IMG/VR virus record: IMGVR_UViG_3300025398_000635
Span: 9,666 to 73,665 of that record
Strand: one strand, 5' to 3'
From: a virus
Taxonomy: Duplodnaviria; Caudoviricetes
Length of the DNA: 64,000 nucleotides
Part shown: positions 114 through 19,870 of the stretch, piece after piece
Layout: each line of letters begins with the position of its first letter
Position numbering within the stretch: position 1 is the first letter of the stretch
The notes under the pieces: generated by a model
Seen by the model: the letters and a program-made list of their open reading frames with translations, nothing else
Databases searched by the model: none
Told to the model about the DNA's origin: nothing
Translations under genes and position numbers: made by a program

Positions 114-1205
114 ATGTATAAATTTAAAGAAATAGGCGCCCTTCACGTTGAACTTAGTTCAAATTGTCAAGCCAGTTGTCCTATGTGCGCTAGAAATCAT
201 CACGGCGGCAAAGATAATCCCTTGCTCAAAGTTAAAGATATTGATCTTAGATTCTTTATTAGAATGATTCCTAGCAGGCTTGTAGAACAATTACACACTA
301 TAACAATGTGTGGAAACTTCGGTGATCCATTGCTTAATAATGACTTACTTAATATTGTCAAATATATTACTATGAACAATCCTAATATTAGGATTGATAT
401 ACATACTAACGGAAGCCTACGTTCGACTAAGTGGTGGGCAGAATTAGCCGCAGCATTACCCGACAATCATCTTGTACAATTTGGTATTGATGGATTGGAA
501 GATACTCACGCACTGTATCGTGTGGGGACGGACTTTAATAAAATCATTGACAATGCTAAAACATTTATTAATGCTGGCGGCAAAGCTCGCTGGAACTTTA
601 TTACATTTAGACACAACGAACATCAATTGGAAACCGCCCGACAGATGGCTAAGGATTTAGGATTTGATAGCTTCTATGAAAAGCAAACTAGCCGCTTTAT
701 AGGTAACCCTTGGTTTGATGCTTACGATAAAAATGGGAATGTAACCCATCGATTAGAAAATCCAACGGAACAAAAATTAGTGTTTGTAGATAAAAAGACT
801 GTAGAAAACTATAGAGAATTAGTTGCTAGTGCAACAATTAAATGTGAAGTTGAAGAACTTAATAGTGTATATATAGATGCACTAGGATACCTATGGCCTT
901 GTTGCTTTGTTGGAGCCACTCCATATATACATACAACAGAACAACAACTTGTTCATGATTTTCAAACAGATAGTAAATCAAGCCTTAATAGACTGCTAGA
1001 AAAATTTAAAGGTATTGAACAATTAAATTTACGTAAGAGGTCTGTTCAGGAAATAGTAGATAGTCCTGAATGGCAAAGTCAGTGGGACGAATCCTTTGAA
1101 GGTGATAAACTACATGTCTGTGTAAGAACTTGTGGTAAGTTTCCCGATGCTGTTATTAGTCAATGCCGCGATCAATTTGTAGACCTGGACACATTTAATG
1201 AATAA
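114..1205 (+). CDS. Radical SAM protein with C-terminal SPASM/twitch-like Cys domain
   Basis: CQASCPMC motif, GNFGDP, C-terminal YLWPCC...CVRTC. Confidence 0.9.
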   Translation: MYKFKEIGALHVELSSNCQASCPMCARNHHGGKDNPLLKVKDIDLRFFIRMIPSRLVEQLHTITMCGNFGDPLLNNDLLNIVKYITMNNPNIRIDIHTNGSLRSTKWWAELAAALPDNHLVQFGIDGLEDTHALYRVGTDFNKIIDNAKTFINAGGKARWNFITFRHNEHQLETARQMAKDLGFDSFYEKQTSRFIGNPWFDAYDKNGNVTHRLENPTEQKLVFVDKKTVENYRELVASATIKCEVEELNSVYIDALGYLWPCCFVGATPYIHTTEQQLVHDFQTDSKSSLNRLLEKFKGIEQLNLRKRSVQEIVDSPEWQSQWDESFEGDKLHVCVRTCGKFPDAVISQCRDQFVDLDTFNE

Positions 1206-2616
1206 GGTATTTTGGCTACAGCCCGAAACAACCCAACTAGGTGATTGGCAAAAACAAATTACCGAGCTAACCGGAAGTCCTAGCTTTTGTGTCCTACCGT
1301 GGATACATCTGGCCACCCGCCCTAATGGTGATATGCGTATATGCTGCGTGGCAAATGCGTCAGGTGCCGATAGTGGTGAGTACGATGTGGGGCTTGTTAA
1401 AAAGGAAGATGGTACTCCTGCTAATTTTGGGCGTGATTTGCCCACTGAGGCATTTAATAACAACTATATGCGATCGGTGCGTAAAACAATGTTAGCTGGT
1501 GAAGTGCCAGCTAGCTGTTTAAAATGCTATCAAGAAGAACAACAAGGTGTTGCCAGTAAGCGTATCTGGGAAACAGGCACCTGGCATTTACAAGAAAAAA
1601 TCGATATTAAAGAATTAATTGCAGAAACGCAAGCAGACGGTTCTGTACCTTATAAGTTACAGTATTTAGATCTTCGCTTGGGAAATACTTGCAATCTCAA
1701 ATGTATTATGTGTAGTCCACACGATAGTAGTTTATGGACTCCCGAACATAAAAAAGTATATCCGCTCTTTCAAAGTCCGTTAATTAAAAAACAAATGGGC
1801 TGGGATAAAAAAATGCACAACAACAGCTGGCATGAAAATCCCGAGTTCTGGGAAGAAGTCTATGATCAAATTCCCAACATTAAACAGTTGTATTTTGCAG
1901 GTGGTGAACCGTTGCTCATAAAAGAACATAAGGTATTTCTTTTAGAAATTATCAAACGTGGTTATGCTAGCCAAATTAGTTTACGGTATAATACTAACGG
2001 TATACTAGTCAATGATGAAATAATTGATATATGGAGCCAATTCCGTAAAGTAAAAGTAGGTGTTAGTTTAGACGGTATAGGACCGCGCGGTGAGTATATA
2101 CGCTATCCCTTAGATTGGAAGACAGTAGAAGAAAATTTAATTAAGTTAGATAATGCTCCAGACAACATACAGACTAACATTGCCATGGCTGTACAGATAC
2201 TAAACATTATGCACGTTCCGGATTTTATTAAATGGAAAGTGCGTATGAATTTTAAGAAAGTTAACTTTGATAAGAATGCCGCGGGACATGTAATGGGTGG
2301 AGGTTTAGTAGGTGTACACTTGCTATGGATTCCTACTTGGTTAAGTTTACGTGTATTACCTAAAGAAGATAAGGCAGAAGTACGTGAACTATTTTCTGAA
2401 CTACAGCAATGGTTATGGGACAACTATACACAAGATGCAGAGTTCTGGGAAGTTAATCCCTATGGATGGCGTCGCTGGGAAGGTATACTAGACTGGATGG
2501 ACGCAGAAGATCATACTAATTTACTACCAGATTTCCGTGAGTACATTAATACAATGGATGCACAACGTAAAACTGATTTTAAAATTACATTCCCCGAGTT
2601 GACACATTTACTATGA
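1198..2616 (+). CDS. Radical SAM protein with N-terminal auxiliary Fe-S (twitch-like) domain
   Basis: N-terminal CVLPW...RICC...CLKC; CNLKCIMC; GGEP. Confidence 0.9.
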   Translation: MNKVFWLQPETTQLGDWQKQITELTGSPSFCVLPWIHLATRPNGDMRICCVANASGADSGEYDVGLVKKEDGTPANFGRDLPTEAFNNNYMRSVRKTMLAGEVPASCLKCYQEEQQGVASKRIWETGTWHLQEKIDIKELIAETQADGSVPYKLQYLDLRLGNTCNLKCIMCSPHDSSLWTPEHKKVYPLFQSPLIKKQMGWDKKMHNNSWHENPEFWEEVYDQIPNIKQLYFAGGEPLLIKEHKVFLLEIIKRGYASQISLRYNTNGILVNDEIIDIWSQFRKVKVGVSLDGIGPRGEYIRYPLDWKTVEENLIKLDNAPDNIQTNIAMAVQILNIMHVPDFIKWKVRMNFKKVNFDKNAAGHVMGGGLVGVHLLWIPTWLSLRVLPKEDKAEVRELFSELQQWLWDNYTQDAEFWEVNPYGWRRWEGILDWMDAEDHTNLLPDFREYINTMDAQRKTDFKITFPELTHLL

Positions 2617-3698
2617 TTACTCGGATTGAATCAACACAACCCCGTAATAGATTAGAACTTCGATGGGCTTTGAACAACGTTTGTAATTTTAAATGTAGAT
2701 ATTGTTTTCCGGGTAGTAATGAAGGAAATTATCCAAGCCCAACAGATGTTGATTTATTAATTAAAAATTTTAATTACATGCTAGATTATTATAGCAAATA
2801 TGCCGGTAAAGAAGTATTTGATTTAAAAATACTAGGCGGCGAGCCTACTATGTATAAAGACCTTGATAAATTTATTAGAGGAATTAAAAAAGAACATAAT
2901 GTATATGTTAGTGTTGTTTCAAATGGATCTCGAACAATACGATGGTGGAAAGAAAACGGTATGTTAATTGATAATTTAATTTTAAGTTATCATCAACAAT
3001 TTGCTGATTTAGATCATACTATTAATGTTGCTGATATTATTCATGCGTATGGTAAAAAAGTTACAGTTCATGTGTTAATGGATGATCAGCACTGGGATGA
3101 ATGTGTTGCAAGTGTAAATTATATCAAAGCAAACAGCAAATATCGTTGGATGATTCAAACCAAAGAGTTAGTTTCTACTTCTCGAGTTAACATCTCGTAT
3201 ACAGATAAACAAAGAAACTTTTTTAAATATGAGCTTAAACGATTTCCTAGCATAATATGGATTTTAAAAAATCTTCATTTATTGTTTAAAGGACACGTTA
3301 AATTATTTGAAAGCAAATATACAGTTAATGGTAAGAAGCGCCGAGCTACTTCTCAATATTATATAACTACACAAGAAAATAATTTTAAGGGATGGGAATG
3401 TGCAATCGGAGTGGAGTCAGTCTATATAGATTTTGACGGTGAGTTAAAAGGTAGTTGTGGTCAATTAATTTTTAATAATACAAGATATAATATCTTAGAC
3501 AAGCAATTTATTAGTATTTTTAATCCGCAACTATCACCTAGCATCTGCACTATTAATAGATGTGTATGCCCGCCAGAAACACATTTATCAAAGTCTAATC
3601 TTAGTCAACGGAATGTCGGCAGCACACGTACAATAATTCCGATCACAGATAATCGGATCTACAGGAATAGTAAAGTTTCCCTGGTAGATATTACCTAA
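2613..3698 (+). CDS. Radical SAM protein
   Basis: CNFKCRYC, GGEPT, C-terminal C..G...SC...C...CxC. Confidence 0.9.
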   Translation: MITRIESTQPRNRLELRWALNNVCNFKCRYCFPGSNEGNYPSPTDVDLLIKNFNYMLDYYSKYAGKEVFDLKILGGEPTMYKDLDKFIRGIKKEHNVYVSVVSNGSRTIRWWKENGMLIDNLILSYHQQFADLDHTINVADIIHAYGKKVTVHVLMDDQHWDECVASVNYIKANSKYRWMIQTKELVSTSRVNISYTDKQRNFFKYELKRFPSIIWILKNLHLLFKGHVKLFESKYTVNGKKRRATSQYYITTQENNFKGWECAIGVESVYIDFDGELKGSCGQLIFNNTRYNILDKQFISIFNPQLSPSICTINRCVCPPETHLSKSNLSQRNVGSTRTIIPITDNRIYRNSKVSLVDIT

Positions 3699-4487
3699 AC
3701 TACCGCCCACTCGGCAGGTAGCGCGATGTACATCACCATCCCAATTAATCATTAGACTTTCTATCCCGGCGTTGCACGACCAACCCTTGTACTGATTGCG
3801 ATGCAGTTTAATAACATCGTTGGCATGCTGTGTTATTTGTCCAAACTTATCATCGAGCCAAATAATAACGTTAGGAGCAACTGTTGCTTCACTATCTTTA
3901 ATCCAATTTAAATCATCTGGGTGATAGCGCATATCATCGAACAAATCGTGATCTCCTTCGGTCCAGCGTATTCTGCGTATAGTGTATGGTACTTTTATAA
4001 TATCGAGATAATCAGCTGAATCTTTAACATCCTTCATGTGATCATGATGTGCCATTAACTGTAACACTAACGATTTGCTACTATCTTTCAAGCTAGTGGC
4101 AGTATGTAAAACTCTCTTAAAATCATATTCAAAGTGTATACTGAATACATATTGATCAACTCGTTGTCGTTGATACCATTCAGGTGTGCGTGTACCATTT
4201 GTAGTCACGCTGATCCAACTGATACCGACATGTTTAGCATAGTTGATTAATTCTTCAAAGTTTGGATGTACTGTAGGTTCCCCACCTGTGAAACTTAGTC
4301 GTACAGGTTTGCCTATCTTTACTAATTGATCTACGGTATTCTTTAATATTTCTATATCAGTATGTTTACTATTATTATCATGTATACTGCTAGGACAATA
4401 ACTACAATCGTAGTTACAACGCTTGCCGAGATTCCACTCGACTTTAACACTATTTTGATGGGGCCAGCGGCTAGTAACTTTAAACAT
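3588..4487 (-). CDS. Radical SAM protein, paralog of 2613..3698
   Basis: CNYDCSYC, GGEPT, CNAG...ATC...CDRNYCTC. Confidence 0.9.
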   Translation of the reverse strand: MFKVTSRWPHQNSVKVEWNLGKRCNYDCSYCPSSIHDNNSKHTDIEILKNTVDQLVKIGKPVRLSFTGGEPTVHPNFEELINYAKHVGISWISVTTNGTRTPEWYQRQRVDQYVFSIHFEYDFKRVLHTATSLKDSSKSLVLQLMAHHDHMKDVKDSADYLDIIKVPYTIRRIRWTEGDHDLFDDMRYHPDDLNWIKDSEATVAPNVIIWLDDKFGQITQHANDVIKLHRNQYKGWSCNAGIESLMINWDGDVHRATCRVGGSLGNIYQGNFTIPVDPIICDRNYCTCAADIPLTKIRL

Positions 4488-5745
4488 AGTCTTTGAATTC
4501 TTGTACTACATCAGTAAATGTTCGGCTGTTTCTAGTTTTATCTAACCGCCGATTAAACTCTACGCAATCTTCCCATAAATCACTAAGATCCTTAGCATTA
4601 AGAAAATTAATGTTATCTTGAATTTGTCCTAGTGTGTATTCTAATAGTTCAGGTCGTTCTTTAACTAGTTTGAAATTGGCCACTCGATCTTTAACTGCTT
4701 CCAGACGCATGATAGCTAACGATTTTAAGGGAGCAGGTAATACTTGCGCCGATAATAGATTAGGATAACTTACACGATGGGTGTGAAATATAATACCTAA
4801 CTTGTCTAAAAACTCTTCTATAATCTTGTCTAATATTAGTACGTTACTTACCTGAACAGTACAGGCACCTACTATACGACTAATGTTTGGTATAGATTGT
4901 ATTTGCCGAATGTTAGTAACCACTTCCTTCCAGCTGGCATTTGATCTTATGTATTCATATACATCACCTATACCATCTATACTTACATTGACCGCTACAC
5001 TTTTGAACTTGGGCCAGTATTGCCAAACAGTTCTGTTACTCTTGCCTAGCATACTTAAATTAGTAGCGTACTTTATTTCAATTTGATCACCGTACGGAGC
5101 AAGCATATCTAATATACGATAGTGCTGTGGATCCATTAAGGGCTCCCCACCGGCAAATTCTACACGACGGAAGTGAGGTAATAGTTTTTCTAGACTAGCC
5201 CACCACGCTGGACTATCTTGGAATTTATCTAGATGGGGTTTACTTTCTAAATTATTTTCTTCTACAATAGCATACATTATATTGCTTTCTTTCTTGTAGA
5301 ACTCTTTAACTTCATTCCAGTCTGTCCAACTAGTGCTATCCATAGGATGACACATACGGCAAGCAAGATTGCATAAGTTGTTTAATTTAAGTTCCATGGT
5401 AGGAATCTCAAACGGCATTGTAAAATCGTCTTGTAAACTGTTGAGTGCATCAGGATATAAATTAATCCTAGCTTCTGGTATCTTACCTGCTATATGACGC
5501 TGACGTAAACTTTCAACACCTTGATCTTCTAAACTAAAACATGGTTCACACTCGGGCGGACGTTCATCGTTGAGCACCTGCTGGCGAATACGTTTGATTG
5601 TATTGTTATTCCAAATTTCTTCTAACGATTGTTTATCTATAAATCCAATAGGATGGCTGCGACAGCAGGCGCAGATAGCCCCATCTTCTCTTGTGGCTAA
5701 TCCTGTAAAAGGATGCATACAGAATGTTTTACTGTTTGGCAACAT
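4480..5745 (-). CDS. Radical SAM protein, paralog of 1198..2616
   Basis: FCMHPF...CACC...CEPC; CNLACRMC; GGEP. Confidence 0.9.
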   Translation of the reverse strand: MLPNSKTFCMHPFTGLATREDGAICACCRSHPIGFIDKQSLEEIWNNNTIKRIRQQVLNDERPPECEPCFSLEDQGVESLRQRHIAGKIPEARINLYPDALNSLQDDFTMPFEIPTMELKLNNLCNLACRMCHPMDSTSWTDWNEVKEFYKKESNIMYAIVEENNLESKPHLDKFQDSPAWWASLEKLLPHFRRVEFAGGEPLMDPQHYRILDMLAPYGDQIEIKYATNLSMLGKSNRTVWQYWPKFKSVAVNVSIDGIGDVYEYIRSNASWKEVVTNIRQIQSIPNISRIVGACTVQVSNVLILDKIIEEFLDKLGIIFHTHRVSYPNLLSAQVLPAPLKSLAIMRLEAVKDRVANFKLVKERPELLEYTLGQIQDNINFLNAKDLSDLWEDCVEFNRRLDKTRNSRTFTDVVQEFKDYV

Positions 5746-6583
5746 ATCTTATTAGAGGACTTAGTCCCACTGGTTGGTTATCTTTAAGAGCAAGGTAAAT
5801 GCTCTTAGTTGGTGTTAGATCAAAGTCCTTGCATATCTTATAGTAAGTATCGCCGTAAGTATTCCACAAATAGTCTGGTAGAAGATTACGTAAGAAGTGT
5901 AAGCCAATCATCGCAGGTGCACGGAGATTCATATTAAAGTCATTCATAATAGTAACAGCATCTGGATCCTGACTTTTAGTCCAACGCAATCCTACACGAT
6001 TCCAACCTAGACCCAAACCTTTACTGAGGCTGATACCAACGCTACGAACAGCAGGATGCCCGACATCGAAAACAATATCCCTACAACAAGTAATCCAAGC
6101 GCCATCAATATGGACCGGAATTTCTTTATCCAAACATTCATCTAATATCTCCGTCATTTGATCATAGACTGCTCCTGTACCGGGAAAGGGCATGGCAATA
6201 ATTAACGGTAAGTCTCGACGTAAGTATCCCGGTATACTGTAAACTAAATTAGGATTTAGTCTAGCGTGATATCTATAATCGCCCTTTAGAGTCTGCACAG
6301 GCCCTTGCATATAGATAGCATCGATAAATTGTGTACAACCATTTATAATATCAACACGGTCAAATTTATCAAACCCAGTGATATTATTAAGTTTACTGGC
6401 AAATAACCATGCCGTCATTTCTTTTTTAAAATTGATATAGACTTGATCAGTAATGTCTTTATCCAGGACTCCGTTTAATACATCTTGTTGCAGTTGCTCA
6501 ATCCTAAGATCAGATAATGGTTGAGGACGATCTATCTCTAGCCATTTGGAATCATATGAAGGAGCAACACGTTGTGGTTTCAT
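5729..6583 (-). CDS. PLP-dependent fold-type-I enzyme (threonine aldolase/aminotransferase-like core)
   Basis: HIDGA and SLSKGLG motifs (pyridine-binding Asp, Schiff-base Lys). Confidence 0.65.
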   Translation of the reverse strand: MKPQRVAPSYDSKWLEIDRPQPLSDLRIEQLQQDVLNGVLDKDITDQVYINFKKEMTAWLFASKLNNITGFDKFDRVDIINGCTQFIDAIYMQGPVQTLKGDYRYHARLNPNLVYSIPGYLRRDLPLIIAMPFPGTGAVYDQMTEILDECLDKEIPVHIDGAWITCCRDIVFDVGHPAVRSVGISLSKGLGLGWNRVGLRWTKSQDPDAVTIMNDFNMNLRAPAMIGLHFLRNLLPDYLWNTYGDTYYKICKDFDLTPTKSIYLALKDNQPVGLSPLIRYVAKQ

Positions 6584-6621
6584 GAATTATTTACACTATA
6601 ATACTAGCACATAAATATTTC

Positions 6622-7293
6622 ATGCTAGAGCTCACTGATTATACTATATCTAACGAATTATTACAAGAGGCAATTAGTCTATTGCCCAAAATAGATGCAC
6701 GGTTAGCTCTTAATCAACCTAGTGCTAGATTCTTTAAAGATCCCTGGAAAATAAAACCAGAGTTTAAAAACACAGTTTGGGAACAGATTCTAGATAGTAT
6801 TGCTTGCGATAAAGGAGAAGCCAGACTAATTAAACTATCTCCGGGTGAGGCATATCCTAGTCATGCTGATATGGATGATCGATGGCATTTGTCTATTTGC
6901 GGTAATCATTCATATCTAATAGATTTAGAAAATAATCAAATGTTTCAAACTAAAGTAGACGGCTGTTGGTATAGTATGGACGCCGGAGTAAGACACACTG
7001 CTGCTAATTTTGGCAGCGAAGATAGATTGCAGTTAGTGGTCAGGAAGTTACTACCGACTAATATTCTTAAAGATCCGATTGATGTACATATTACGCTGAA
7101 AAATATCGTAGCAGATCGTAGATTTTTATTTGATGATATTATTAGCCCGTGGTTGAATAGAGCGTTCAAACGTGGTATTGTTAGTGACTTTGATGGTCAA
7201 GATCTAATTGCAAAACTTACCATAGAAGTAGACTGCTTAGATGAGTTAGATGCGTTGACTAAAGATTATTTTATACTAACAATAGATGTATGA
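6622..7293 (+). CDS. 2OG-Fe(II) dioxygenase, Asp/Asn beta-hydroxylase-like
   Basis: HxD (HAD) plus distal H (RHTAANFG..DR). Confidence 0.75.
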   Translation: MLELTDYTISNELLQEAISLLPKIDARLALNQPSARFFKDPWKIKPEFKNTVWEQILDSIACDKGEARLIKLSPGEAYPSHADMDDRWHLSICGNHSYLIDLENNQMFQTKVDGCWYSMDAGVRHTAANFGSEDRLQLVVRKLLPTNILKDPIDVHITLKNIVADRRFLFDDIISPWLNRAFKRGIVSDFDGQDLIAKLTIEVDCLDELDALTKDYFILTIDV

Positions 7294-7982: not shown

Positions 7983-8023
7983 TAAAACTGTTATCAACCA
8001 AAAGATTATCATATAAATATTTC

Positions 8024-9088: not shown

Positions 9089-9660
9089 TCTAAATTATGA
9101 TCAATGTAGAATTTAGGTTTATGATATGCATCATCGGTTTCATGAGTACTAAATTGAAAAGTCACTCTCGGTATCATGCTAAGATTAACTACTCCGTGTA
9201 TTAGATCGGCCTGATCCCAAGTCCATAAATCACCAGCTTTATAATTAGTCATCATCTGGCCCCCTTCTGATACAAATACATGGCCTGGATGATAATCCAT
9301 CATTGCCATCCAGTATCGTTTAGCAGTTTGATAAATCTTTGTATGTGGGTCGTAATGCATACAAGCAACTGAGCCTGGCAGGAATTTAATGAACCACCAA
9401 TCCCAAGTTTTATTCCCTAAATCAATAGGTGGTGTTATTACAAAGTCCTTAATATCTTCAGTATACTGATTATACATATTTGAGTAAAAGTTACGTTTAT
9501 CGTAACCTGCTGCACAAAAAGTTTTATACCACGCTTCGTGTTCGGGGTGACCCTTCCATGTCAGTGGTTGATTTAACAGCGTCGGATCACCTTGAGTTTC
9601 TACTATTCTTTCTAGTAGCTCTGGCTGAATCCAATCTTTAAAATTACCTAGATATTTCAT
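9085..9660 (-). CDS. 2OG-Fe(II)/cupin oxygenase
   Basis: MHYDPH...HGVVNLSMIPR. Confidence 0.75.
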   Translation of the reverse strand: MKYLGNFKDWIQPELLERIVETQGDPTLLNQPLTWKGHPEHEAWYKTFCAAGYDKRNFYSNMYNQYTEDIKDFVITPPIDLGNKTWDWWFIKFLPGSVACMHYDPHTKIYQTAKRYWMAMMDYHPGHVFVSEGGQMMTNYKAGDLWTWDQADLIHGVVNLSMIPRVTFQFSTHETDDAYHKPKFYIDHNLD

Positions 9661-10189
9661 TATAAAAACTCATCTGCAGACTAATTCGGGGATTCATACT
9701 GATATTTGCAGCACCGTGCAAACACATAGCATCAGGCCATAAAAACAAATCGCCAGCCTTATAATTATTTAATAACACATCATCGTAGACAAATATGTGT
9801 CCATCTTCAAAATCTGTTAGCATCATAGTATAACGCTGACAATCTTGTGTATCTATAACATGCGGATCAAAATGCATAGGCTGCATATCCCCACCCATGT
9901 ATTTAACTATCCACCAATGATGTACTGGTGGCAAGTCAGGTAGATTAAATTTAAAATCAATTTGATCTAAAAACGGTTTTATACATTCTGTATTTTCAGT
10001 GTACTGATGAAAATGATAATCTAGTTTAGGATAGCCGGCATTTTCTAAAGCAATACGGGCAGCGTCCCATTCTGGTTTACCCGACCATTTTTCAGGCTGA
10101 TATACCGGAGTAATTTCACCATCATTGTTTAATACAGCATCAATTAATCCTGCTGGAATTTGATCTATGTAATTTCCGATATATTTCAT
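9644..10189 (-). CDS. 2OG-Fe(II)/cupin oxygenase, paralog of 9085..9660
   Basis: MHFDPH...HGAANISMNPR. Confidence 0.75.
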   Translation of the reverse strand: MKYIGNYIDQIPAGLIDAVLNNDGEITPVYQPEKWSGKPEWDAARIALENAGYPKLDYHFHQYTENTECIKPFLDQIDFKFNLPDLPPVHHWWIVKYMGGDMQPMHFDPHVIDTQDCQRYTMMLTDFEDGHIFVYDDVLLNNYKAGDLFLWPDAMCLHGAANISMNPRISLQMSFYNEISR

Positions 10190-10890
10190 TTTAATATAAA
10201 TCTAAGATCGATATGCGTTTTTAAAAAATCTGCCACAAGCTCGTGTCCATTTTCCAGGGGATGATCACCAGGACCCCAATCTATATTAGGGAAGTTCATT
10301 ACATAATGCCTTAATGCCATAGTGACCATGTAATAAGTTAAATCCATTTGTGATACAAATAGGTCTTTTATATCTTGGCGCAACAACACCGTCTTTGTGT
10401 CAAACGTGTTAAGCATTAAGTAAGGAATATTATTTTTCTTTAGAAATGATTCTAATAATACTACTTGAGTTAAAAAATTTATAACATCAGTTTCATCGGA
10501 AGAATATCGTGTCCAAATTTTTTCAGCAAGTTTTTGATCATCCCCACGAGTCGATGCTGAAAAGTTAGTCCAGTTATTTTTTTCTTGACTAAACAATTCA
10601 AAACGATGTATCAATGTCCATGTAATAATAACAAGAGGTTTACGCCCTTCCAGTAATAATCTACTAATATCTTCAACAGTAGTTCTAACTATTCTTTGAT
10701 TACTACCACCTGGTGAAGCAGAATTTAACAACGGTAAATTATAATGCTTTGATAACAAGCCTGGAAAGGAATATGCTAATCTATGTGCTTCGCTTTCATC
10801 ACCTAGCTCTGATCCCCAAGCCCAACTATCGCCATTACAATATAAAATGTCGGGTGTAATTTCTTGAGGTGAAATGGTTATATGCTTCAT
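10186..10890 (-). CDS. SGNH/GDSL-like hydrolase or acyltransferase
   Basis: GDSW block I, GGSN block II, DHP block V. Confidence 0.65.
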   Translation of the reverse strand: MKHITISPQEITPDILYCNGDSWAWGSELGDESEAHRLAYSFPGLLSKHYNLPLLNSASPGGSNQRIVRTTVEDISRLLLEGRKPLVIITWTLIHRFELFSQEKNNWTNFSASTRGDDQKLAEKIWTRYSSDETDVINFLTQVVLLESFLKKNNIPYLMLNTFDTKTVLLRQDIKDLFVSQMDLTYYMVTMALRHYVMNFPNIDWGPGDHPLENGHELVADFLKTHIDLRFILK

Positions 10891-12500
10891 TTACGATCCT
10901 TTAAAAATTTAAGTAATGGATTAAAATAATCACGCATAACTTGCTTGTATATTAACAGCATATTTCCACTGACTTTCGGTACGTTTTCATACTCTTCCCA
11001 TGATAGTGAATCGAGCTCTTCCCAGGACCAATCTCCGTGATCAAATGCAGTATGTTTAAATACCCACTTACCTTTGCGTTTGATTGTACTTAGCCTAGCT
11101 TCCCAGTAGTCTGATACCGCTTTGGCTTCATCGTAGTTGGTAATATCAGTACCGTCATTCTTTTCCCAATACCAGGGGCGATTTATTGGGTCAGGCCAAC
11201 TATAACCCCACTTTTCAGCTTCACGTTCAAATTGACTAGTGACCTTATATCTATCTAAGGGATCCGGGGCATACTGCCGTAGTGGAACAAGACCGATAGC
11301 ATCGATAGGAGCATCTTCACGCATAAACCATTCGACAGATTCTGCAACGCTGGCACTATCTTCCCCCGGTAAACCTGTGATAAATTGGCTACTGATTAAC
11401 ACATCTCCGCCCCATACTGCTTTACAATCTATCAGAGCTTGTTTAAGTTTATCCGGACTTGCTCCTTTTTTAATTGCGCGACCTGCTGTTTTATTAAACG
11501 TTTCGATGCCTACTACAATATCTTTAAATCCACAGTCTTTAATAAGTTGCATTTGTTCGGGGTGACTCGCTATTAGATCTAATCTAAAAAATCCCCAGAA
11601 CGCAGGCTTAAATGGTAAACTTTTAACAATAGCTAAAAATGTTTCTAGTTTTTCTGTGCTGTCATTAAACGTGTCGTCGGTCACGTAGTATTTCCATACA
11701 CCCCAACGTTCCCAATTCTCTATAAGTTCTTCACGAATAAGTTCCGGGGTCTTTGTGTAATCAGCTACATTCTTTTGTCCTATTAACGGCCAAGTACAAA
11801 AACTGCAACTAAAACGGCACCCCCTGCCAACTTCTAATCCTAATCCTTCGTACGACTGTATAAAATCTTCTTCCTGATAGCGTGTAGTGCTGTAGACATA
11901 GTTGAATTGTTCTTTGTTACCCTGAGCTTTAGTATCGTAGTCCACAATAGTATTAAAGATGCGTTTGGGTCCTTGCCCACTAATGCTTAATACATAGTCA
12001 ACAAACATAGTTTCGGCCATACCTACAAAGTAATTATCAACTAACGGTGTACCAAAGTATTCCCAAGTCTTACTGCCGCCCATGACAATTTTGGTCTTAG
12101 GATTTAGATCTTTAATATACTGTAACCAAGGAAGACTGTTACCGTTGGCAAACTGTAGTGGTAAACCTTTTGCATACCATTCTTCATCTTCTAATTTTAA
12201 AAAATCCTGTGAGCTAGTCCTGGCATAACTGGCCTGTAATAATCTTGCTTTCTTTTGTCCTTCTACATCCTGCATACGGTAAGGGAAGATACTAGTGCTA
12301 AATCCTACAAACAGTGTCTCTGGACCTATAGCTAAATTCAATAACTCTTTGTACAAGTCAATGTCGATTGCAAAAGCCCAATCTAGTACAAGTATTTTAA
12401 ATCCATAGCGGCGCAGTTCGTTAGCAAGACGATGTACGCCATAGCCGCGACCGAGCCAATTTTGACTAGTACATTCTGTAATAAAAATTCCGTGGTACAT
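10887..12500 (-). CDS. B12-binding-domain radical SAM enzyme (class B-like)
   Basis: N-terminal B12-binding-like region (VGFSTS, VMGGS), GRGCRFSCSFC, DDTF, VGIET. Confidence 0.8.
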   Translation of the reverse strand: MYHGIFITECTSQNWLGRGYGVHRLANELRRYGFKILVLDWAFAIDIDLYKELLNLAIGPETLFVGFSTSIFPYRMQDVEGQKKARLLQASYARTSSQDFLKLEDEEWYAKGLPLQFANGNSLPWLQYIKDLNPKTKIVMGGSKTWEYFGTPLVDNYFVGMAETMFVDYVLSISGQGPKRIFNTIVDYDTKAQGNKEQFNYVYSTTRYQEEDFIQSYEGLGLEVGRGCRFSCSFCTWPLIGQKNVADYTKTPELIREELIENWERWGVWKYYVTDDTFNDSTEKLETFLAIVKSLPFKPAFWGFFRLDLIASHPEQMQLIKDCGFKDIVVGIETFNKTAGRAIKKGASPDKLKQALIDCKAVWGGDVLISSQFITGLPGEDSASVAESVEWFMREDAPIDAIGLVPLRQYAPDPLDRYKVTSQFEREAEKWGYSWPDPINRPWYWEKNDGTDITNYDEAKAVSDYWEARLSTIKRKGKWVFKHTAFDHGDWSWEELDSLSWEEYENVPKVSGNMLLIYKQVMRDYFNPLLKFLKDRK

Positions 12501-13303
12501 TAGTATGAATCCAAATGATCAATGCCCAGTTTTTTACGGAACTCATCTGTAAACTTGCCATCAATACGTAGACTATAGCTCTGTTCCATTATACGTTCAC
12601 CACCGTGCCAGTCCTGATCGTTCCACCAGGCAACTCGTGTATTTAGATATACCTTATTCTTAGTTTCCGGATCCCAGATATAAAATGCTTTTTTAGTGTT
12701 AGGACGTATGTGTATAAATTCATTACGGTGTAAAAATGTTTGATTCATACCATTCTTAGCATCTAAGTCTCTATGCTCAAACGGAATACCATCTGCTTCG
12801 CAATGGAAGAATATAACACGACCGATATCTTCAAACACTGTACCTACCAAACTTTCTATCCACTTAACTGTGTTGGGAAAATATTCTGCTTCAGGAGTTA
12901 GTTTGCGTGGTGCAGTACGATCATCCCACGATCCTTCTTCCCACAAATAGTAATATATGTAAGGGTCATATGCACCCATAGCCATTTTTAAAAATCTTGT
13001 AAACTTATTTCGCTGTTGGAAGTTTTTAAAATCTAATGGCATTAGTTTCATACCTGCTTCTTTAATAGGATCCCCGTCGGGCAATGCTGCAAATTCTTCA
13101 GCTGCCTTGTAGATAGGTTTCCAGTGAGGCTGATAACTCATATCTTCAAATGTAAAACCAGGAGCCATCCAAGTTCCTTCTTTGGCTTGATCACGTGCTA
13201 GAGCAAACCCGGTAAGTATTTCTGATTGTAGTTGATCAAACTCTGCCATATCTACATATTGAGCCAGATCATAGTATGGTTGCTTGTTTATACCTATAAT
13301 CAT
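12500..13303 (-). CDS. 2OG-Fe(II)/cupin oxygenase-like protein
   Basis: EHRD...WHGG...SLRIDG. Confidence 0.55.
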   Translation of the reverse strand: MIIGINKQPYYDLAQYVDMAEFDQLQSEILTGFALARDQAKEGTWMAPGFTFEDMSYQPHWKPIYKAAEEFAALPDGDPIKEAGMKLMPLDFKNFQQRNKFTRFLKMAMGAYDPYIYYYLWEEGSWDDRTAPRKLTPEAEYFPNTVKWIESLVGTVFEDIGRVIFFHCEADGIPFEHRDLDAKNGMNQTFLHRNEFIHIRPNTKKAFYIWDPETKNKVYLNTRVAWWNDQDWHGGERIMEQSYSLRIDGKFTDEFRKKLGIDHLDSY

Positions 13304-13902
13304 ATTTCACCCGTTATTGCTAGCAGATCTTCTATTCGATCTTTAGGTATCCTTGCAATTAGATTAACTCTATCCTTATTAGAATTATTAACCGTATCGT
13401 GAGGTAGTTCTACATCTAATCCCCAAGCACTACCATCGGGTGTAAATGTATAAGGAGTATTATTTAAAATAAACAAAGCATCTGATTCCCACTGTATGGG
13501 AATAATAATTACATATTGTCCCGGATCATTATGATTAACAACCTGCCCAGTGGGTGGCAATACAAACAAAGTCCAACGGAACGCGAATGGTATACGGTCT
13601 TTTAATCTCTTTACAACTCCGAACATTAGTTCAGTATCATACCAATCTACTGTAGGATGTTTAGTCTTTAACATTGATGGCGGCATAGACTTATCTGCCA
13701 TATTGCTTTGCATCATCCATCCGTGCATTAAGGTTTGTGATTTTTCGGCACATTCACTAGCAGCCACATTATCTAAATGGATGCTGTTATTTTCCCAAGT
13801 CCAATTTAAATGACTATATTGAGTTTTAACTTTGTTGTAATAGTCTACTAGTTCTGTTGGATCTACAGTAAAATTTAATTTGGTGACTTCAGAAATATTC
13901 AT
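13300..13902 (-). CDS. Asp/Asn beta-hydroxylase-like 2OG-Fe(II) oxygenase
   Basis: HND...PHDTVNNSNKDRVNL. Confidence 0.7.
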   Translation of the reverse strand: MNISEVTKLNFTVDPTELVDYYNKVKTQYSHLNWTWENNSIHLDNVAASECAEKSQTLMHGWMMQSNMADKSMPPSMLKTKHPTVDWYDTELMFGVVKRLKDRIPFAFRWTLFVLPPTGQVVNHNDPGQYVIIIPIQWESDALFILNNTPYTFTPDGSAWGLDVELPHDTVNNSNKDRVNLIARIPKDRIEDLLAITGEI

Positions 13903-13931
13903 AGTAGAACTATTTATAGCTAAGTATTTTC

Positions 13932-14627
13932 ATGATAAGCGGATACGAATACTACTATAATAATGTGCCAGGAGATGGCCTTTGCAGAAACAATCTCATT
14001 TATACCAGCCTCATTAGCCAGGATAAAAAAACATTTGTACAATGGTATCACAACGATACGGAGTATCATAAAGGACAAAATCAAGTAGTAGATCCAAAAT
14101 TAATGACAGCCAAATGGGAAAGAGAAATGCATTTTCTCCACAATATGGCATATCATTATCCAGACATGGTTCCTGAAATATTAGAAGTAAACGTCCCCGA
14201 ACGAAAAATATATCTTAAAATCGATGGGGTCGATTTTTGGCAACGGAGCTTAGACGGAGCTTGCAATTTTGATCAAATACTTCCAGACTGGCGTGAACAG
14301 ATGTTAGATATGTTTCGTGCATACAAAGCACATGGTTGGTACAAGTATAGTTTACACCCTAGTAGCTATTTTATCGTAGATGGCCGTCTTAAAAGTATAA
14401 ACTATTTCTTTACATATTCTAATAATGAAAAACCAATCACAGTCGCTGATCACCTGAGTCATATTAGTGAAGAGCGTCAAGTGGCAATGAAGACTATAAC
14501 AGATTATATGGGCATCGATTGGGATGAACCGCAATCGTTGTTTACTATGCAGATGCTGGCATTTGAAAGTTTTAGAAATAACTATCCAGATGACTTTATA
14601 GATCAGGCTAAAGATGTCTGGCTTTAA
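13932..14627 (+). CDS. Protein-kinase-like fold protein, paralog of 7290..7982
   Basis: Shared NLIYT, ERE, W.EQM, Y(K)SL(H/Y)P..YF motifs. Confidence 0.45.
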   Translation: MISGYEYYYNNVPGDGLCRNNLIYTSLISQDKKTFVQWYHNDTEYHKGQNQVVDPKLMTAKWEREMHFLHNMAYHYPDMVPEILEVNVPERKIYLKIDGVDFWQRSLDGACNFDQILPDWREQMLDMFRAYKAHGWYKYSLHPSSYFIVDGRLKSINYFFTYSNNEKPITVADHLSHISEERQVAMKTITDYMGIDWDEPQSLFTMQMLAFESFRNNYPDDFIDQAKDVWL

Positions 14628-15180
14628 AATAGTACCCTGGTCGGAAGATCTAGACCTCACAGAGTTCTATGCTGATGCAGCTCGTAGAGGATTCGATAAT
14701 AATTCAAGTCGTCAATCTCTAGTAGATTGTTTTCGTAACGAAAAATCGAAACAAGTATGGATACTTTATTATAATGATCGTGCAGTAGGTAGTGTTGCTG
14801 CCCATAGCTTTCCAGAAATGGGTGAAGATGCATTTAGGATTGCTGCTCGTACCTGTGTGTTTACAGATCAACTACCTGGGGCATATGGTTCGGCTTTACG
14901 TACAATAAGTGTTATTACAGAACATCAAAATCCCACAGCACAATTTTTAATACCTGCTTGTATAGAATGGTGTCCACCTTGGGCTGATCTGTACATAACA
15001 TCAAACGAAAGCCCTGTTGGCACACAGCGACTAGTACATAATATATTTGGCCCCGCAATGGAACGACAGGGTGTTATGAAAAGAATCAAAGAGCTAGACT
15101 ATAGAGGAACTAGGCAAACTGCCTGGCAATTTTTTCCTAATACCTTTTACGAACAATTAAGCATCTATCGACGCTGGTAA
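14614..15180 (+). CDS. GNAT-like acetyltransferase-fold protein
   Basis: VWILYYNDRAVGSVAAH...FRIAARTC pattern. Confidence 0.4.
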   Translation: MSGFKIVPWSEDLDLTEFYADAARRGFDNNSSRQSLVDCFRNEKSKQVWILYYNDRAVGSVAAHSFPEMGEDAFRIAARTCVFTDQLPGAYGSALRTISVITEHQNPTAQFLIPACIEWCPPWADLYITSNESPVGTQRLVHNIFGPAMERQGVMKRIKELDYRGTRQTAWQFFPNTFYEQLSIYRRW

Positions 15181-16236
15181 TTTAAAATCTTTAATGTCTG
15201 CTAGATTTACATAGTAGGCCATTTCTTTATTATAATCACTAATAAACGGTTCTTTCAAATACGGCTGCCATGGACCTGTTTGTAAATTACTATAGTCATG
15301 TTGTATGCGATAGCATAACCTATCCTTAATATCACCTAGTCTACGATGTAGTGTAATACTATTGTCAAATAGACAAAAATCGTTATTGCTTTGATACCAA
15401 TGATCGTAGATATATTTGTCTACAAATAGTTCTTTGTTTATTTCTGCAAATACACTATCACTTTCTTCTTTAGTCATACCTTTAATACTGTGAACTGTGT
15501 TTAATGAATAATGTAATCCTATGATACCCCCGGGACTACGCATTACCATAGGAATCTCTGTGTCATCTTCCGGACACATGTTGGCATGCATAACTTCATC
15601 TTGATCTTGACGTAGACCCGGATTGATACGTCCGGGTGTAAATCTATGTACTAGTATCATTTCATCTAATTCACTACGGAACGCATTGCTGACATTTTCA
15701 TAATAGTCAGGTGTAGTAAGAAATCCTGTACTAGATCCTATCATGTTTTCAGCACCTAATAATGCCACTCCGGGTGTGAATGTTAATGTACCACTTTCAT
15801 TGCTATGCCAAAGTAATTCACCTTCAGCAAACATACCCAGTGGGTTACCGTCTGAATCCCGCTTGCCGGTTACACGCATAACATGTCTGCCATCTGGCAT
15901 AAGTTCTTGCATACGACTAATACTTTGTAGTCGCTGTTTATCTATGTCATCTATGCTAGGATCATCCTGCAGAGCGGCACCGACGATTTCCTTCCAAGTC
16001 CTGCCTTGATATTTTTTAAGTAATAGATATCGAACACCGTATCGTGTATCACCAAATTGCTTGCAGAAATCTATCTCTCGATCCCAAGTTAGATTACAAT
16101 CACGAATGATAGTAACTAGATTTTCTAAATGTAGACGGCCAATTTCCAGCCATTCTTCATTGGTAATCGTAGTAAAGTCTACCTCATCGACAAAAACGCC
16201 GAATCTGCCTAATCCGGGTATCTTTGATACTTTCAT
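15157..16236 (-). CDS. TauD/TfdA-family 2OG dioxygenase
   Basis: LLWHSNES, STGFLTT, WYQSNNDFCLFDNSITLHRR. Confidence 0.85.
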   Translation of the reverse strand: MKVSKIPGLGRFGVFVDEVDFTTITNEEWLEIGRLHLENLVTIIRDCNLTWDREIDFCKQFGDTRYGVRYLLLKKYQGRTWKEIVGAALQDDPSIDDIDKQRLQSISRMQELMPDGRHVMRVTGKRDSDGNPLGMFAEGELLWHSNESGTLTFTPGVALLGAENMIGSSTGFLTTPDYYENVSNAFRSELDEMILVHRFTPGRINPGLRQDQDEVMHANMCPEDDTEIPMVMRSPGGIIGLHYSLNTVHSIKGMTKEESDSVFAEINKELFVDKYIYDHWYQSNNDFCLFDNSITLHRRLGDIKDRLCYRIQHDYSNLQTGPWQPYLKEPFISDYNKEMAYYVNLADIKDFKLPASIDA

Positions 16237-18611: not shown

Positions 18612-18689
18612 TGGAGGTGCGGGTGAGATTCGAACTCACGGTTTTAGGGATTTGCAGTCCCTTGCATTGGGCCTCTCTGCCACCACACC
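18612..18689 (-). tRNA. trnC: tRNA-Cys(GCA)
   Basis: Cloverleaf, U73, encoded CCA. Confidence 0.93.
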
Positions 18690-19279: not shown

Positions 19280-19282
19280 GCA

Positions 19283-19861: not shown

Positions 19862-19870
19862 AAAGGTTCC

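Follow-up and report, generated by a model that had tools for sequence, protein, structure and literature searches.

A radical SAM and iron-oxygenase enzyme island with a fixed core and a variable shell in a freshwater T4-like jumbo phage

What does a phage do with an array of radical enzymes? A T4-like jumbo phage of fresh water, uncultured and very abundant, devotes about 20 kb of its genome to genes of soluble radical SAM (rSAM) enzymes, iron oxygenases and helper enzymes. All proteins of this island are predicted to be soluble and to lack membrane segments, and an array of 24 tRNA genes abuts it. The window analyzed here comprises 64,000 nucleotides of this genome. Its ORFs are labeled w1 to w23 in order from 114 to 19903, whereas ORFs u1 to u13 lie in the 9.6 kb that precede the window (locus L009). 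A preliminary description, made from the sequence of positions 114 to 16236, had recognized an enzyme island and proposed that it modifies virion proteins, glycans or packaged DNA, or makes a small molecule. The island is confirmed and turns out to have been understated. A T4-like environmental viral genome from the sea has likewise been published with a count of 12 rSAM genes, which were discussed solely as Fe-S cluster clients (Nishimura et al. 2017, PMC5332604). That paper does not describe the anatomy of a cluster, a core, a counterpart in bacteria or a function.

The six rSAM ORFs previously counted in 114..16236 all exceed the Pfam Radical_SAM gathering score and carry the CX3CX2C motif, and two more are found upstream of the window. 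Within the 73.7-kb contig PF04055 has eight matches, and all of them lie inside 15 kb; a search of the other 52 kb with this profile found none. Five of the six, w1 to w5, have four or five additional cysteines each, as had been noted, and these are conserved in 89-100% of homologs. With the upstream genes included, twitch/SPASM-like auxiliary Cys sets are present in seven of the eight rSAM enzymes of the contig.

The core contains three kinds of auxiliary-cluster rSAM enzyme, represented by u10/w3/w4, by w1/u12 and by the N-terminal-twitch proteins w2 and w5. W1 (114..1205, plus strand) matches Pfam Radical_SAM with 43.4 bits and SPASM with 18.8 bits, the latter below cut-off; its C-terminal auxiliary cysteines, C244, C263, C264, C336 and C340, are conserved, and it is a paralog of u12 (38% identity by blastp). 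W2 (1198..2616, plus) belongs to the family NF033640 (NCBIfam N_Twi_rSAM, 401.6 bits against a cut-off of 170), and its N-terminal C31, C49, C50, C107 and C110 are conserved. W3 (2613..3698, plus; Radical_SAM 42.3 bits), with a C-terminal set of five cysteines, is assigned to the u10/w3/w4 type by blastp to w4 and u10 and by Cys conservation, and w4 (3588..4487, minus; 58.9 bits), also with conserved cysteines, is of that type too. W5 (4480..5745, minus) is the second NF033640 protein (326.1 bits, same cut-off), with a SPASM match of 34.7 bits at residues 9-69. Both w2 and w5 match NF033640 over the full profile length and retain the N-terminal Cys set, and here the paralogs sit in a fixed core alongside other rSAM types. 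A literature search found neither an experimentally characterized member of this family nor a paper on it.

Two further enzymes complete the core. W6 (5729..6583, minus) is the PLP enzyme of the preliminary description, an assignment borne out by its structure model (VIA Z 19). It is a fold-type I PLP-dependent enzyme of the class I/II aminotransferase, C-S lyase or CobD-like kind, in which D160 and S185-x-x-K188 are invariant, and an Atlas lead points the same way. The model (pLDDT 90.7) matches class I/II aminotransferases and C-S lyases with a Foldseek E of 1e-8 and VIA Z of 18-19.3. Its nearest relatives are PLP enzymes acting on amino acids, namely CobD, PatB, C-S lyases, MppP, ACC synthase and HisC, and no DegT-type sugar aminotransferase is found among its best 50 entries. 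U11 has a class I SAM-dependent methyltransferase fold; in structure it comes closest to a nicotianamine-synthase-like protein, and small-molecule O/N-methyltransferases rank next.

Comparison of 68 related phage loci revealed a fixed core of u10, u11, w2, w4, w5 and w6 together with w1-, w3- and w7-type genes. W2, the best conserved of them, is present in 68 loci. Among the 19 relatives with full flanks, w2, w4, w5 and w6 are retained at 50% identity or more in all 19, and u10 and u11 in 16 each. Around the core lies a shuffled mosaic of oxygenases, kinase-like proteins and others that is swapped between relatives. A relative has 6-9 rSAM genes, including two to three N_Twi_rSAM paralogs, and 1-9 oxygenase-like genes. 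In relative L033, w2 is 83% identical and w10 to w14 are 87-93% identical, whereas in L012 the values are 90% for w2 and 39-49% for w10 to w12. Retention of the core by all 19 relatives with full flanks, and its clustering in bacteria as well, mark the island as a single coherent and conserved enzyme system, a fixed core inside a variable shell, and not as a collection of unrelated genes.

Several oxygenases are encoded in the window. W7 (6622..7293, plus) is an Asp/Asn β-hydroxylase-like Fe(II)/2OG oxygenase (Pfam Asp_Arg_Hydrox 23.4 bits, cut-off 22.6), with H81, D83, H125 and R135 invariant in its family. W16 (13300..13902, minus) is of the same kind; at 19.5 bits it falls below that cut-off, but it aligns in family A13. 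The small cupin/DSBH oxygenase-like proteins w9 (7937..8536, plus), w10 (8537..9088, plus), w11 (9085..9660, minus) and w12 (9644..10189, minus) form one family by blastp, with an invariant HxD...H motif, which hhalign relates to an AspH-like family (91%, E 1e-6). W19 (15157..16236, minus) is a TauD/TfdA-family Fe(II)/2OG dioxygenase (Pfam TauD 53.8 bits, cut-off 27), and a 47% identical homolog lies within an rSAM operon of an Acidimicrobiaceae MAG. Seven of the eight oxygenases originally claimed are thus supported. The eighth, w15 (12500..13303, minus), is oxygenase-like at the level of a motif, H177-x-D179...H233...R246, invariant in the alignment, and PDB and profile searches lent the assignment no support. 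Two further oxygenase-like genes, w22 and w23 (18644..19903, minus), recognized at motif level by HxD/HxH, follow past a fibre gene; w23 is related to the upstream u13 (blastp E 2.8e-10).

The remaining shell proteins are more varied. W8 (7290..7982, plus) and w17 (13932..14627, plus) are paralogs by blastp. Their family profile matches the TTK kinase (E 5e-6) and also Bud32 in the PDB, as expected for the two kinase-like folds described, but the match covers part of the fold and no catalytic motif was identified in it. W14 (10887..12500, minus; Radical_SAM 58.7 bits at residues 223-391) has an N-terminal domain of about 220 residues and no auxiliary cysteines. It looks like a class-B rSAM, in keeping with the B12-type enzyme proposed earlier, although its top NCBIfam matches, PhpK, HpnJ and other B12-binding rSAM families, are all far below cut-offs. 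The reported SGNH hydrolase, w13 (10186..10890, minus), is confirmed by a DUF6071 match (63.2 bits) and conserved GDS, G, N and H blocks. The N_Twi rSAM gene of Ralstonia phage RsoM2USA is flanked by three w13 paralogs. The supposed GNAT, w18 (14614..15180, plus), is at best a possible GNAT-like acyltransferase, with weak leads from Pfam FeeM (E 0.09) and from the Atlas (0.95 to clusters with PF00583 on 12-15% of members) and with no PDB match.

On what, then, does this system act? The core is clustered in 20 bacterial loci, mostly from Bdellovibrionota (predatory Bdellovibrio-like bacteria) and from a few other bacteria, at identities of 44-48% for u10, 35-39% for w1, 45-50% for w2 and 30-38% for u11; w6 is sometimes included. 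The bacterial versions are long co-directional operons with at least 10 rSAM genes as well as aldo-keto reductase and nitroreductase genes. The commonest neighbor family is GT2 (five clusters), and other neighbors are a NodU-type carbamoyltransferase, an NDP-sugar epimerase/dehydratase, a Nucleotid_trans protein and an FkbM methyltransferase. Between u11 and w2 the bacteria have a divergent GT2-like pair with a DGD motif, called famY, with 7827 homologs, a few of which bear PF00535 or PF13641. In phage relatives, famY and a third N_Twi rSAM form a triad. One of these relatives, G004, has the order two IMC-type tail fibre genes, Nucleotid_trans, famY pair, N_Twi, UDP-glucose dehydrogenase, island.

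Since the core occurs beside sugar-transferring enzymes in Bdellovibrio-like bacteria, its likeliest role is to make or modify an unusual sugar decoration. The best reading is a pathway that tailors glycans in the cytoplasm and perhaps decorates the virion, although we hold it tentatively, at a little short of an even chance. The general idea of modification machinery survives, and among its four proposed targets the glycan is best supported, by the neighbors of the core in bacteria and phage relatives. The core would act in the cytoplasm on a sugar, a sugar nucleotide or a glycan that GT-A type glycosyltransferases have already transferred; these would be the enzymes adjoining the core in bacteria and some phage relatives and lying elsewhere in the genome in others. 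The radical enzymes might perform C-H chemistry (epimerization, dehydration, oxidation or C-methylation), the PLP enzyme and u11 might add or remodel amino or methyl groups, and the shell might hydroxylate, phosphorylate, acylate or deacylate the product. By such tailoring, we propose, each phage strain would have its own product variant. More speculatively, a fibre protein of the virion may be where the decorated glycan ends up, given the lack of an exporter and the frequent position of fibre genes beside the island.

Known glycan loci resemble the island in part. Capsule loci of Campylobacter jejuni combine GT2 enzymes with an auxiliary PLP transaminase, amidoligase and phosphatase (PMC11800379). 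Like them, the present clusters join GT2-type transferases to tailoring enzymes that are soluble, among them a non-DegT PLP enzyme, and are variable between strains; as in glycan clusters, bacterial and some phage cores adjoin GT2 or GT2-like, carbamoyltransferase, epimerase and UDP-glucose dehydrogenase genes. Unlike capsule clusters, the phage island has no polymerase, flippase or exporter and the window has no transferase gene; and 6-9 rSAM enzymes per phage locus are unlike known capsule or O-antigen loci. Viruses can encode glycosylation machinery, as do chloroviruses for their capsid glycans and T4-like cyanophages in LPS-like gene clusters. The likeness is that of a large virus with its own cytoplasmic sugar enzymes; those systems are built on glycosyltransferases and NDP-sugar enzymes and are not known to have rSAM arrays.

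Several observations count against a glycan. Neither the window nor the 73.7-kb contig contains a famY-type glycosyltransferase-like gene or a Pfam GT2 match. The triad of two large relatives is 77-96 kb from the island, and sugar-nucleotide genes adjoin the island in one relative only. The earlier remark that no sugar-nucleotide pathway is evident holds for the window, but not for the lineage. The assignment of famY to GT-A lacks statistical backing: hhalign to single GT2 proteins aligns the DxD region only, and famY has no PDB hit. The resemblance of w6 to PLP enzymes acting on amino acids is a further difficulty, and peptides are frequent substrates of Twitch/SPASM rSAM enzymes.

The latter point leads to direct maturation of a virion fibre or other phage protein, RiPP-like or HXS-like on a full-length substrate, which rSAM enzymes would cross-link, epimerize or methylate, AspH/TauD-type enzymes hydroxylate and kinase-like proteins phosphorylate. 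We consider this unlikely, although the AspH-like and protein-kinase-like folds and the adjacent fibre-like gene suit it, the auxiliary Cys sets of the seven rSAM enzymes are of a type common in peptide maturases, and such maturases dominate the NCBIfam match lists at low scores, every named one far below cut-off. The HXS antiphage system (HxsA-D) is a precedent for rSAM-matured protein effectors (PMC13128918), and like it and the SPASM/twitch peptide maturases the island has paired auxiliary-cluster rSAM enzymes. W5 matches HxsB (39 bits), and w1, u12 and w4 match HxsC-type models, all weakly and far below cut-offs. Unlike HXS, the phage and bacterial loci searched contain no HxS-repeat or other substrate protein; a (C)HxS-repeat protein is absent from the contig and 146 related loci, and the gaps between the island genes leave no room for a precursor gene. 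That no precursor peptide is evident had been stated before and stands, which tells against the peptide option. The adjoining fibre-like protein, w20 (16299..17342, minus), is Ser/Gly/Asn-rich with an Mtd_N-like N terminus (Pfam 21.9 bits, below cut-off) and matches a PHROG virion structural protein (E 2.5e-5), but it has no cysteine. Its position beside the island, correctly described for the window, is kept in only some relatives, homologs being adjacent or 12-28 kb off. Judged from sequence, w20 is a neighbor of the island and at most a candidate substrate. The bacterial clusters, moreover, adjoin glycosyltransferases and not an obvious substrate protein.

Equally improbable in our estimate is a free small molecule derived from an amino acid or nucleoside and made during infection, such as a toxin, signal, metallophore or cofactor analog; on this view the phage would carry a genuine secondary-metabolite cluster. 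The relatives of w6 and u11 fit, as do the long bacterial operons with their reductases and a typical tailoring set of TauD, class-B-like rSAM, kinase-like and SGNH proteins and a possibly N-acyl-amino-acid-synthase-like w18. No enzyme that would form a scaffold, such as an NRPS, PKS, terpene cyclase or PEP mutase, was seen, however, PEP mutase alone having been searched for as such; no exporter or immunity gene was recognized among these soluble proteins, and the recurrent glycosyltransferase neighbors would need another explanation.

Quite improbable is hypermodification of phage DNA or the phage's own tRNAs, in which a complex base would be assembled through rSAM, PLP, kinase, acyltransferase and oxygenase steps, on the pattern of thymidine hypermodification, 7-deazaguanine or wybutosine-type pathways. 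The enzyme palette is like that of thymidine hypermodification sets, which reportedly comprise a kinase, a PLP enzyme and an rSAM enzyme; w8 and w17, however, are presumably not of the P-loop type of that pathway. The abutting tRNA array and QueC-like genes in relatives and bacteria are in favor, but the similarities to QueC and QueE are weak and of a generic kind. Phages with GT-A-type DNA glycosyltransferases and Bdellovibrio with JGT homologs are known (bioRxiv 10.1101/2023.12.21.572611), which also favors it. Against the DNA option, no Tet_JBP oxygenase or ThyA-type hydroxymethylase was found on five contigs searched, one of them 76% complete, and occurrence in cellular Bdellovibrionota beside GT2 and housekeeping genes fits poorly. 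Lastly, a hyperplastic pile of unrelated, often paralogous auxiliary genes with no common pathway, to which the shuffled order, patchy shell, many paralog families and bordering tRNA array (such arrays often lie beside variable regions in T4-like phages) might point, is already disfavored and very improbable, because the six core genes stay together in every relative examined and distant bacteria have four of these families side by side at 30-50% identity, which chance accretion would not predict.

When would the island be expressed? Many of its genes had been said to follow late boxes. The strict T4 late box TATAARTA is not enriched, but ATAAATA is, with 11 of its 19 copies located no more than 45 nt ahead of a start on the same strand. 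ATAAATA boxes stand before non-virion genes too, and late expression is predicted solely from these promoter-like elements. The units that begin with w1, w6, w7, w16 and w19 have ATAAATA or G/T-TAAATA at their head. Upstream of w1, ATAAATA is 14 nt before the ATG and is accompanied by TTGACA-N18-TATAAT; a TATAAATA box at 13911-13918 precedes w16. Sequence reading and motif statistics indicate a divergent promoter-like spacer between w6 and w7 (6584..6621), in which each ATG is preceded by a TAAATA box at a distance of about 10 nt.

The 19 open reading frames (ORFs) between positions 114 and 16236 of the window are tightly packed on both strands and belong to a genuine and coherent enzyme system, which is widespread and as yet uncharacterised. 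The preliminary description counted six radical SAM enzymes in this interval, and all six were confirmed, but the border that it placed at 114 on the left is produced by the edge of the window. The island continues upstream, where contig positions 6450-9735 (L009:6450-9735) encode the radical SAM enzyme u10 (L009:6450-7406), the methyltransferase-fold protein u11, a second radical SAM enzyme, u12 (L009:7986-9101), and the oxygenase-like u13. The true start of the island is thus about 3.2 kb before the window, and the island contains eight radical SAM genes in all. The remaining 52 kb of the contig contain none. An all-against-all comparison groups the proteins into six families of paralogs: u12 with w1, w2 with w5, u10 with w3 and w4, w9 with w10, w11 and w12, w8 with w17, and u13 with w23 (the w numbers denote the window's ORFs in order and the u numbers those of the 9.6 kb upstream). 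No membrane segment is predicted in any island protein. Relaxed Pfam searches with the unknown proteins returned noise only, a PHROGs search with ten of them found no match except for the fibre-like protein, and profile searches of PDB sequences gave nothing significant for w6, w14, w15, w18, u11 or famY, a divergent GT2-like protein pair of related loci.

Proteins were assigned to the radical SAM superfamily if they contained the CX3CX2C motif of the SAM-cleaving [4Fe-4S] cluster and had a profile score above the gathering score. Six ORFs of the window and the two upstream ORFs exceed the 29.5-bit gathering score of PF04055, and all contain the motif. Seven of the enzymes (u10, u12, w1, w2, w3, w4 and w5) have four or five extra cysteines, conserved in 89-100% of homologs, which are C-terminal in u10, w3, w4, w1 and u12 and N-terminal in w2 and w5. 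These residues would be able to bind clusters, and the seven enzymes are probably of the SPASM/twitch type with auxiliary clusters. The five such enzymes reported earlier for the island correspond to w1-w5, in which the extra cysteines are indeed conserved. Only w5 passes the Pfam SPASM threshold (34.7 bits); w1 scores 18.8, below the cut-off of 21.5. Both w2 and w5 match the N-terminal-twitch family NF033640 (N_Twi_rSAM) over their full length, with 401.6 and 326.1 bits, respectively, against a cut-off of 170, and five cysteines of their N-terminal twitch-like domain are conserved in 92-100% of homologs. Literature searches for a characterised N-terminal-twitch enzyme yielded no study of NF033640 members. 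The eighth enzyme, w14, a candidate for class B (cobalamin-dependent), has no extra conserved cysteines and carries an N-terminal domain of about 220 residues ahead of the radical SAM domain. Its best NCBIfam matches are B12-dependent families (PhpK, 65 bits; HpnJ, 63 bits), none of which comes near its cut-off, and it has neither a Pfam B12-binding match nor a PDB sequence match.

The identities of w6 and u11 come from structure prediction, the sequence searches having given none. Asp160 and the Ser185-x-x-Lys188 motif of w6 are invariant across phage and bacterial homologs. The model of w6 (pLDDT 90.7) resembles class I/II aminotransferases, C-S lyases, CobD and MppP, with VIA Z scores of 18-19.3 over 260-270 residues to PatB, MalY, MppP and HisC. 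With its candidate Schiff-base lysine, pyridine-nitrogen aspartate and fold, w6 is in all probability a fold-type I PLP-dependent enzyme, as had been proposed, and its model looks like PLP enzymes that act on amino acids. The u11 model (pLDDT 94.6) has a class I SAM-dependent methyltransferase fold and is closest to a nicotianamine-synthase-like protein.

Eight 2-oxoglutarate/cupin oxygenases had been proposed. The AspH-like w7 and the TauD protein w19 are above the Pfam cut-offs, whereas w16 is just below. In the w9-w12 family the HxD...H motif is invariant, as is the facial triad in the AspH-like family of w7 and w16, and profile-profile alignment relates the two families (hhalign, 91%, E 1e-6). 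By facial triad and family profile matches, the island appears to encode Fe(II)/2-oxoglutarate oxygenases of the cupin (DSBH) fold; w15 is oxygenase-like by its invariant HxD...H...R motif alone. The proposed SGNH hydrolase, w13 (Pfam DUF6071, 63 bits), keeps the GDS, Gly, Asn and His blocks of such enzymes: Gly20, Ser22, Gly61 and His210 are invariant in its family and the 'PGxSN' block is retained. The GDSL profile gave weak matches only, in related accessory genes. The w8/w17 family profile matches the kinase TTK (E 5e-6) over about 105 residues, which is part of the fold, and Bud32 with E 0.009; Lys144 is invariant, and no catalytic Asp motif was identified. The similarity of w18 to GNAT proteins is weak (FeeM, E 0.09; no PDB match). 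Its Atlas score of 0.95, based on just 136 shared features, is to clusters in which 12-15% of the members carry PF00583.

The late boxes of the preliminary description survive in altered form. The strict T4 late box, TATAARTA, occurs in six copies compared to 15 expected by chance; being rarer than expected, it was rejected in favour of ATAAATA. Eleven of the 19 ATAAATA copies fall within the 45 nt that precede a start on the same strand, positions that make up only 3.5% of the sequence, and TAAATA is ninefold enriched immediately 5' of starts. Boxes of this type head units at w1, w6, w7, w16 and w19 and, upstream of the window, at u13 and u10; w1 is additionally preceded by a sigma-70-like TTGACA-N18-TATAAT. 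Since such boxes are found in front of non-virion genes as well, in other parts of the window, late expression of the island in a T4-like phage is plausible, but no more than that. The region 5' of gp23 in one relative offered no promoter by which 'late' could be calibrated.

The window comprises bases 9666-73665 of a 73,665-bp IMG/VR record that is about 20% complete according to CheckV. The relatives of this record carry the T4-type major capsid gene (Gp23) and are 270-371 kb in size, so the source is an uncultured jumbo phage of the T4-like type. Its lineage is found very commonly in metagenomes, and public ones contain more than 3900 homologs of the w2 protein at E <= 1e-10, on contigs of up to 371 kb, and the best 120 of these are all at least 79% identical to it. 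With so many close homologs, an uncharacterised pathway of six to nine radical SAM enzymes may well be expressed at large scale in lakes. A megablast search of the island against 50,697 phage records gave no match. The phage also encodes a DnaK (Hsp70) on the minus strand (window 49711-51645). It shares about 70% identity with DnaK sequences from records that carry the names of Pseudomonas, Salmonella, Escherichia and Acinetobacter phages or strains, and 53-58% with those of metagenomic megaphages, possibly a hint of a proteobacterial host.

Homologs of w2 with 58-100% identity are found in 68 IMG/VR loci. All 19 loci with full flanks encode w2, w4, w5 and w6 with an identity of 50% or more, and the same holds for u10 in 16 loci and for u11 in 16; members of the w1, w3 and w7 families occur in every locus, but are divergent. 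Around this core is a patchy shell, consisting of w8-w19 and many unknown ORFs, and the gene order is shuffled, w2 for instance being relocated behind w6. In one relative (L033) w2 is 83% identical and w10-w14 are 87-93% identical; in another (L012) w2 is 90% identical and w10-w12 only 39-49%. Judging from these identities, the shell is swapped without regard to the core. Accessory genes in relatives encode QueC-like, SGNH-like, fatty-acid-desaturase-family and further AspH-like proteins, and the core-and-shell layout is a natural variant set for enzyme discovery. The desaturase-family gene (membrane di-iron) lies inside the island in six of the 68 related phage loci, e.g. L047:3936-4697, and also adjoins the bacterial core in one neighbor cluster. 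It is the only enzyme of the membrane type associated with the system and could be a sign of a lipid-linked intermediate. A cultured jumbo phage, Ralstonia phage RsoM2USA, encodes an N-terminal-twitch enzyme, gp202, flanked by three DUF6071/SGNH-like paralogs, gp200, gp201 and gp203 (L156, record positions 125035-129043), all annotated as hypothetical. This locus could be a tractable model.

The closest cellular homologs of w2 (45-50% identity) in the species-representative genomes scanned are from Bdellovibrionales, Pseudobdellovibrionaceae and Bacteriovoracaceae metagenome-assembled genomes (MAGs); others are from one Acidimicrobiaceae, one Neisseriaceae and one gammaproteobacterial MAG. Twenty bacterial loci have clustered homologs of u10 (44-48%), w1 (35-39%), w2 and u11 (30-38%), often with w4, w5 and w6 in addition, and contain up to ten radical SAM genes. 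That the core is common to phages and predatory bacteria points to a function tied to the attack on Gram-negative cells. GT2 glycosyltransferases are the commonest neighbor family of the bacterial core. Further neighbors include a NodU-type carbamoyltransferase, an NDP-sugar epimerase/dehydratase, a nucleotide-diphospho-sugar transferase and an FkbM methyltransferase, as well as PhyH, AspH-like and QueC-like proteins. In the Neisseriaceae and gammaproteobacterial MAGs, a conserved 71-74-residue ORF ('...ATNNN..QFNK.AHHNSQ.WYKA...YGDLPSKAGPGK'; L096:5316-5531 and L110:5391-5615), not seen in the phage, directly follows the u11-like gene; it could encode a small subunit or a substrate. Small proteins that resemble MTA/SAH (5'-deoxyadenosine) nucleosidases by motif only are present in bacterial multi-radical-SAM operons (L110:15748-16305 and L095:6811-7296); enzymes of this type would remove the radical SAM by-product.

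Between u11 and w2, the bacterial clusters encode famY, a paralogous pair of about 235 and 315 residues; several phage relatives have homologous ORFs joined to their islands. A DGD motif follows the β-strand-like 'DIxFISYDE'. A few of the 7827 famY homologs have a precomputed PF00535 or PF13641 match, and one copy is named as a cellulose-synthase-like glycosyltransferase. From these matches and the DxD motif, famY is a putative GT-A type transferase; hhalign comparisons with single GT2 proteins were not significant. Five phage contigs contain no Pfam GT2 match, and famY is recognised in phages only through homology to the bacterial neighbors. The pair is present in the related phage contigs G001, G002 and G004, and in the two that were examined, G001 and G004, it is followed by a third N-terminal-twitch enzyme. 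In G004 a tail fibre with an S74 chaperone domain comes first, followed by a second fibre that weakly matches a G2-type cleavage domain (E 0.004, below the Pfam cut-off); then come a nucleotide-diphospho-sugar transferase, the famY pair, the N-terminal-twitch gene, UDP-glucose dehydrogenase and, finally, the island.

Because the radical SAM core is recurrently paired, in phages and bacteria alike, with sugar-nucleotide enzymes and transferases of the GT-A type, a sugar or glycan is the most likely substrate. Virion proteins, glycans, DNA and a small molecule had all been named as targets; the gene pairing favors glycans, and tailoring of a glycan is the best-supported guess, with a chance of being correct that is a little short of even. 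The mosaic shell is compatible with diversifying selection on the product. The soluble enzymes, which lack an exporter, and the fibre neighbors suggest that the target is assembled in the cytoplasm and may be a virion protein. It had been stated that no sugar-nucleotide pathway is evident. This holds for the window and its contig (about 20% complete), which have neither glycosyltransferase nor sugar-nucleotide genes, famY included, but such genes adjoin the core in bacteria and in some phage relatives. Against the glycan reading are the missing transferase in the window, the position of the famY triad, which two large relatives encode at a great distance from the island, and the single occurrence, in G004, of sugar-nucleotide genes next to the island. 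Neither these nor the fibre genes of G004 adjoin the island in the other loci compared. The likeness of w6 to amino-acid-acting enzymes also counts against it; nevertheless, PLP enzymes of this kind have a precedent in glycan decoration, in the glucuronamide pathway of the C. jejuni capsule (PMC11800379). A more elaborate proposal, which we consider improbable as a whole, is that a widespread group of freshwater T4-like jumbo phages and predatory Bdellovibrionota have an undescribed pathway in common, in which several twitch enzymes would rebuild a sugar, GT-A transferases would attach it to a fibre protein, and the rapidly swapped shell of oxygenases, kinase-like proteins and esterases would diversify it between strains, giving a hypervariable, radical SAM-based 'glycan coat' on the prey- or host-recognition apparatus.

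Direct maturation of a protein by the radical SAM, oxygenase and kinase-like enzymes would account for the twitch/SPASM enzymes, the AspH-like and kinase-like folds and the neighboring fibre gene. It is nevertheless unlikely: a substrate gene, of the HxS type or otherwise, is absent from all loci, and the similarity to named maturases is weak and sub-threshold. The HXS system is an example of radical SAM-matured proteins (PMC13128918). A six-frame regular-expression search of the whole contig and loci L001-L155 found no protein with His-Xaa-Ser or Cys-His-x-Ser repeats, and a cassette of the HXS/CHxS type was dropped for want of this substrate. The gaps between island genes (window 1205-17460) are 29-117 nt long, with a further 113 nt before the first gene, and the core contains no conserved small ORF of the RiPP-precursor kind in a contig representing about 20% of the genome. 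There is a similarly small chance that the island makes a free small molecule, with which the structural matches of w6 and u11 would agree, but PEP mutase is missing and neither a scaffold enzyme nor an exporter was recognised; the missing PEP mutase also led us to drop a phosphonate product. Hypermodification of DNA or tRNA is less probable still, being weakened by missing Tet_JBP and ThyA-type genes: PF00303 and PF12851 have no match in five contigs of the lineage, which are incomplete genomes, one of them 76% complete. Glycosylation of 5hmC or 5hmU in DNA, which would draw on these genes, was likewise dropped. A random accretion of unrelated genes is very improbable, as it conflicts with a core that is conserved across domains.

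Should the product prove to be a virion glycan, it would represent a novel type of chemistry for phage particles and would provide a role for the orphan N-terminal-twitch family; a small molecule or a modified base would be no less novel. The system matters because it is abundant, has an unusual enzyme load and is shared with predatory bacteria. In the literature, multiple radical SAM genes in phages appear only as a gene count, 12 in a marine T4-like genome (PMC5332604), and no study of the present cluster was found.

Several further genes flank the island. The 109-residue u9 (L009:5956-6285, minus strand) has a signal-peptide-like N terminus and a C-terminal 'GHETRHC' (HExxH-like) motif and is kept beside u10 in 21 relatives; the 60-nt stretch 5' of its start terminates in a sequence resembling a tRNA 3' end, which ARAGORN does not call. 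Farther upstream, the small ORFs u2, u3 and u4 (L009:765-2449, minus strand) have lipoprotein-like signal peptides, a hydrophobic stretch followed by a cysteine, which suggests that they are phage-made secreted or outer-membrane lipoproteins. At the other end, past the fibre-like gene, the metallophosphoesterase-like w21 and the oxygenase-like w22 and w23 (window 17460-19946) are interleaved with tRNA-Cys (18612-18689) and tRNA-Val (19871-19946), at the distal end of an array of 24 tRNAs.
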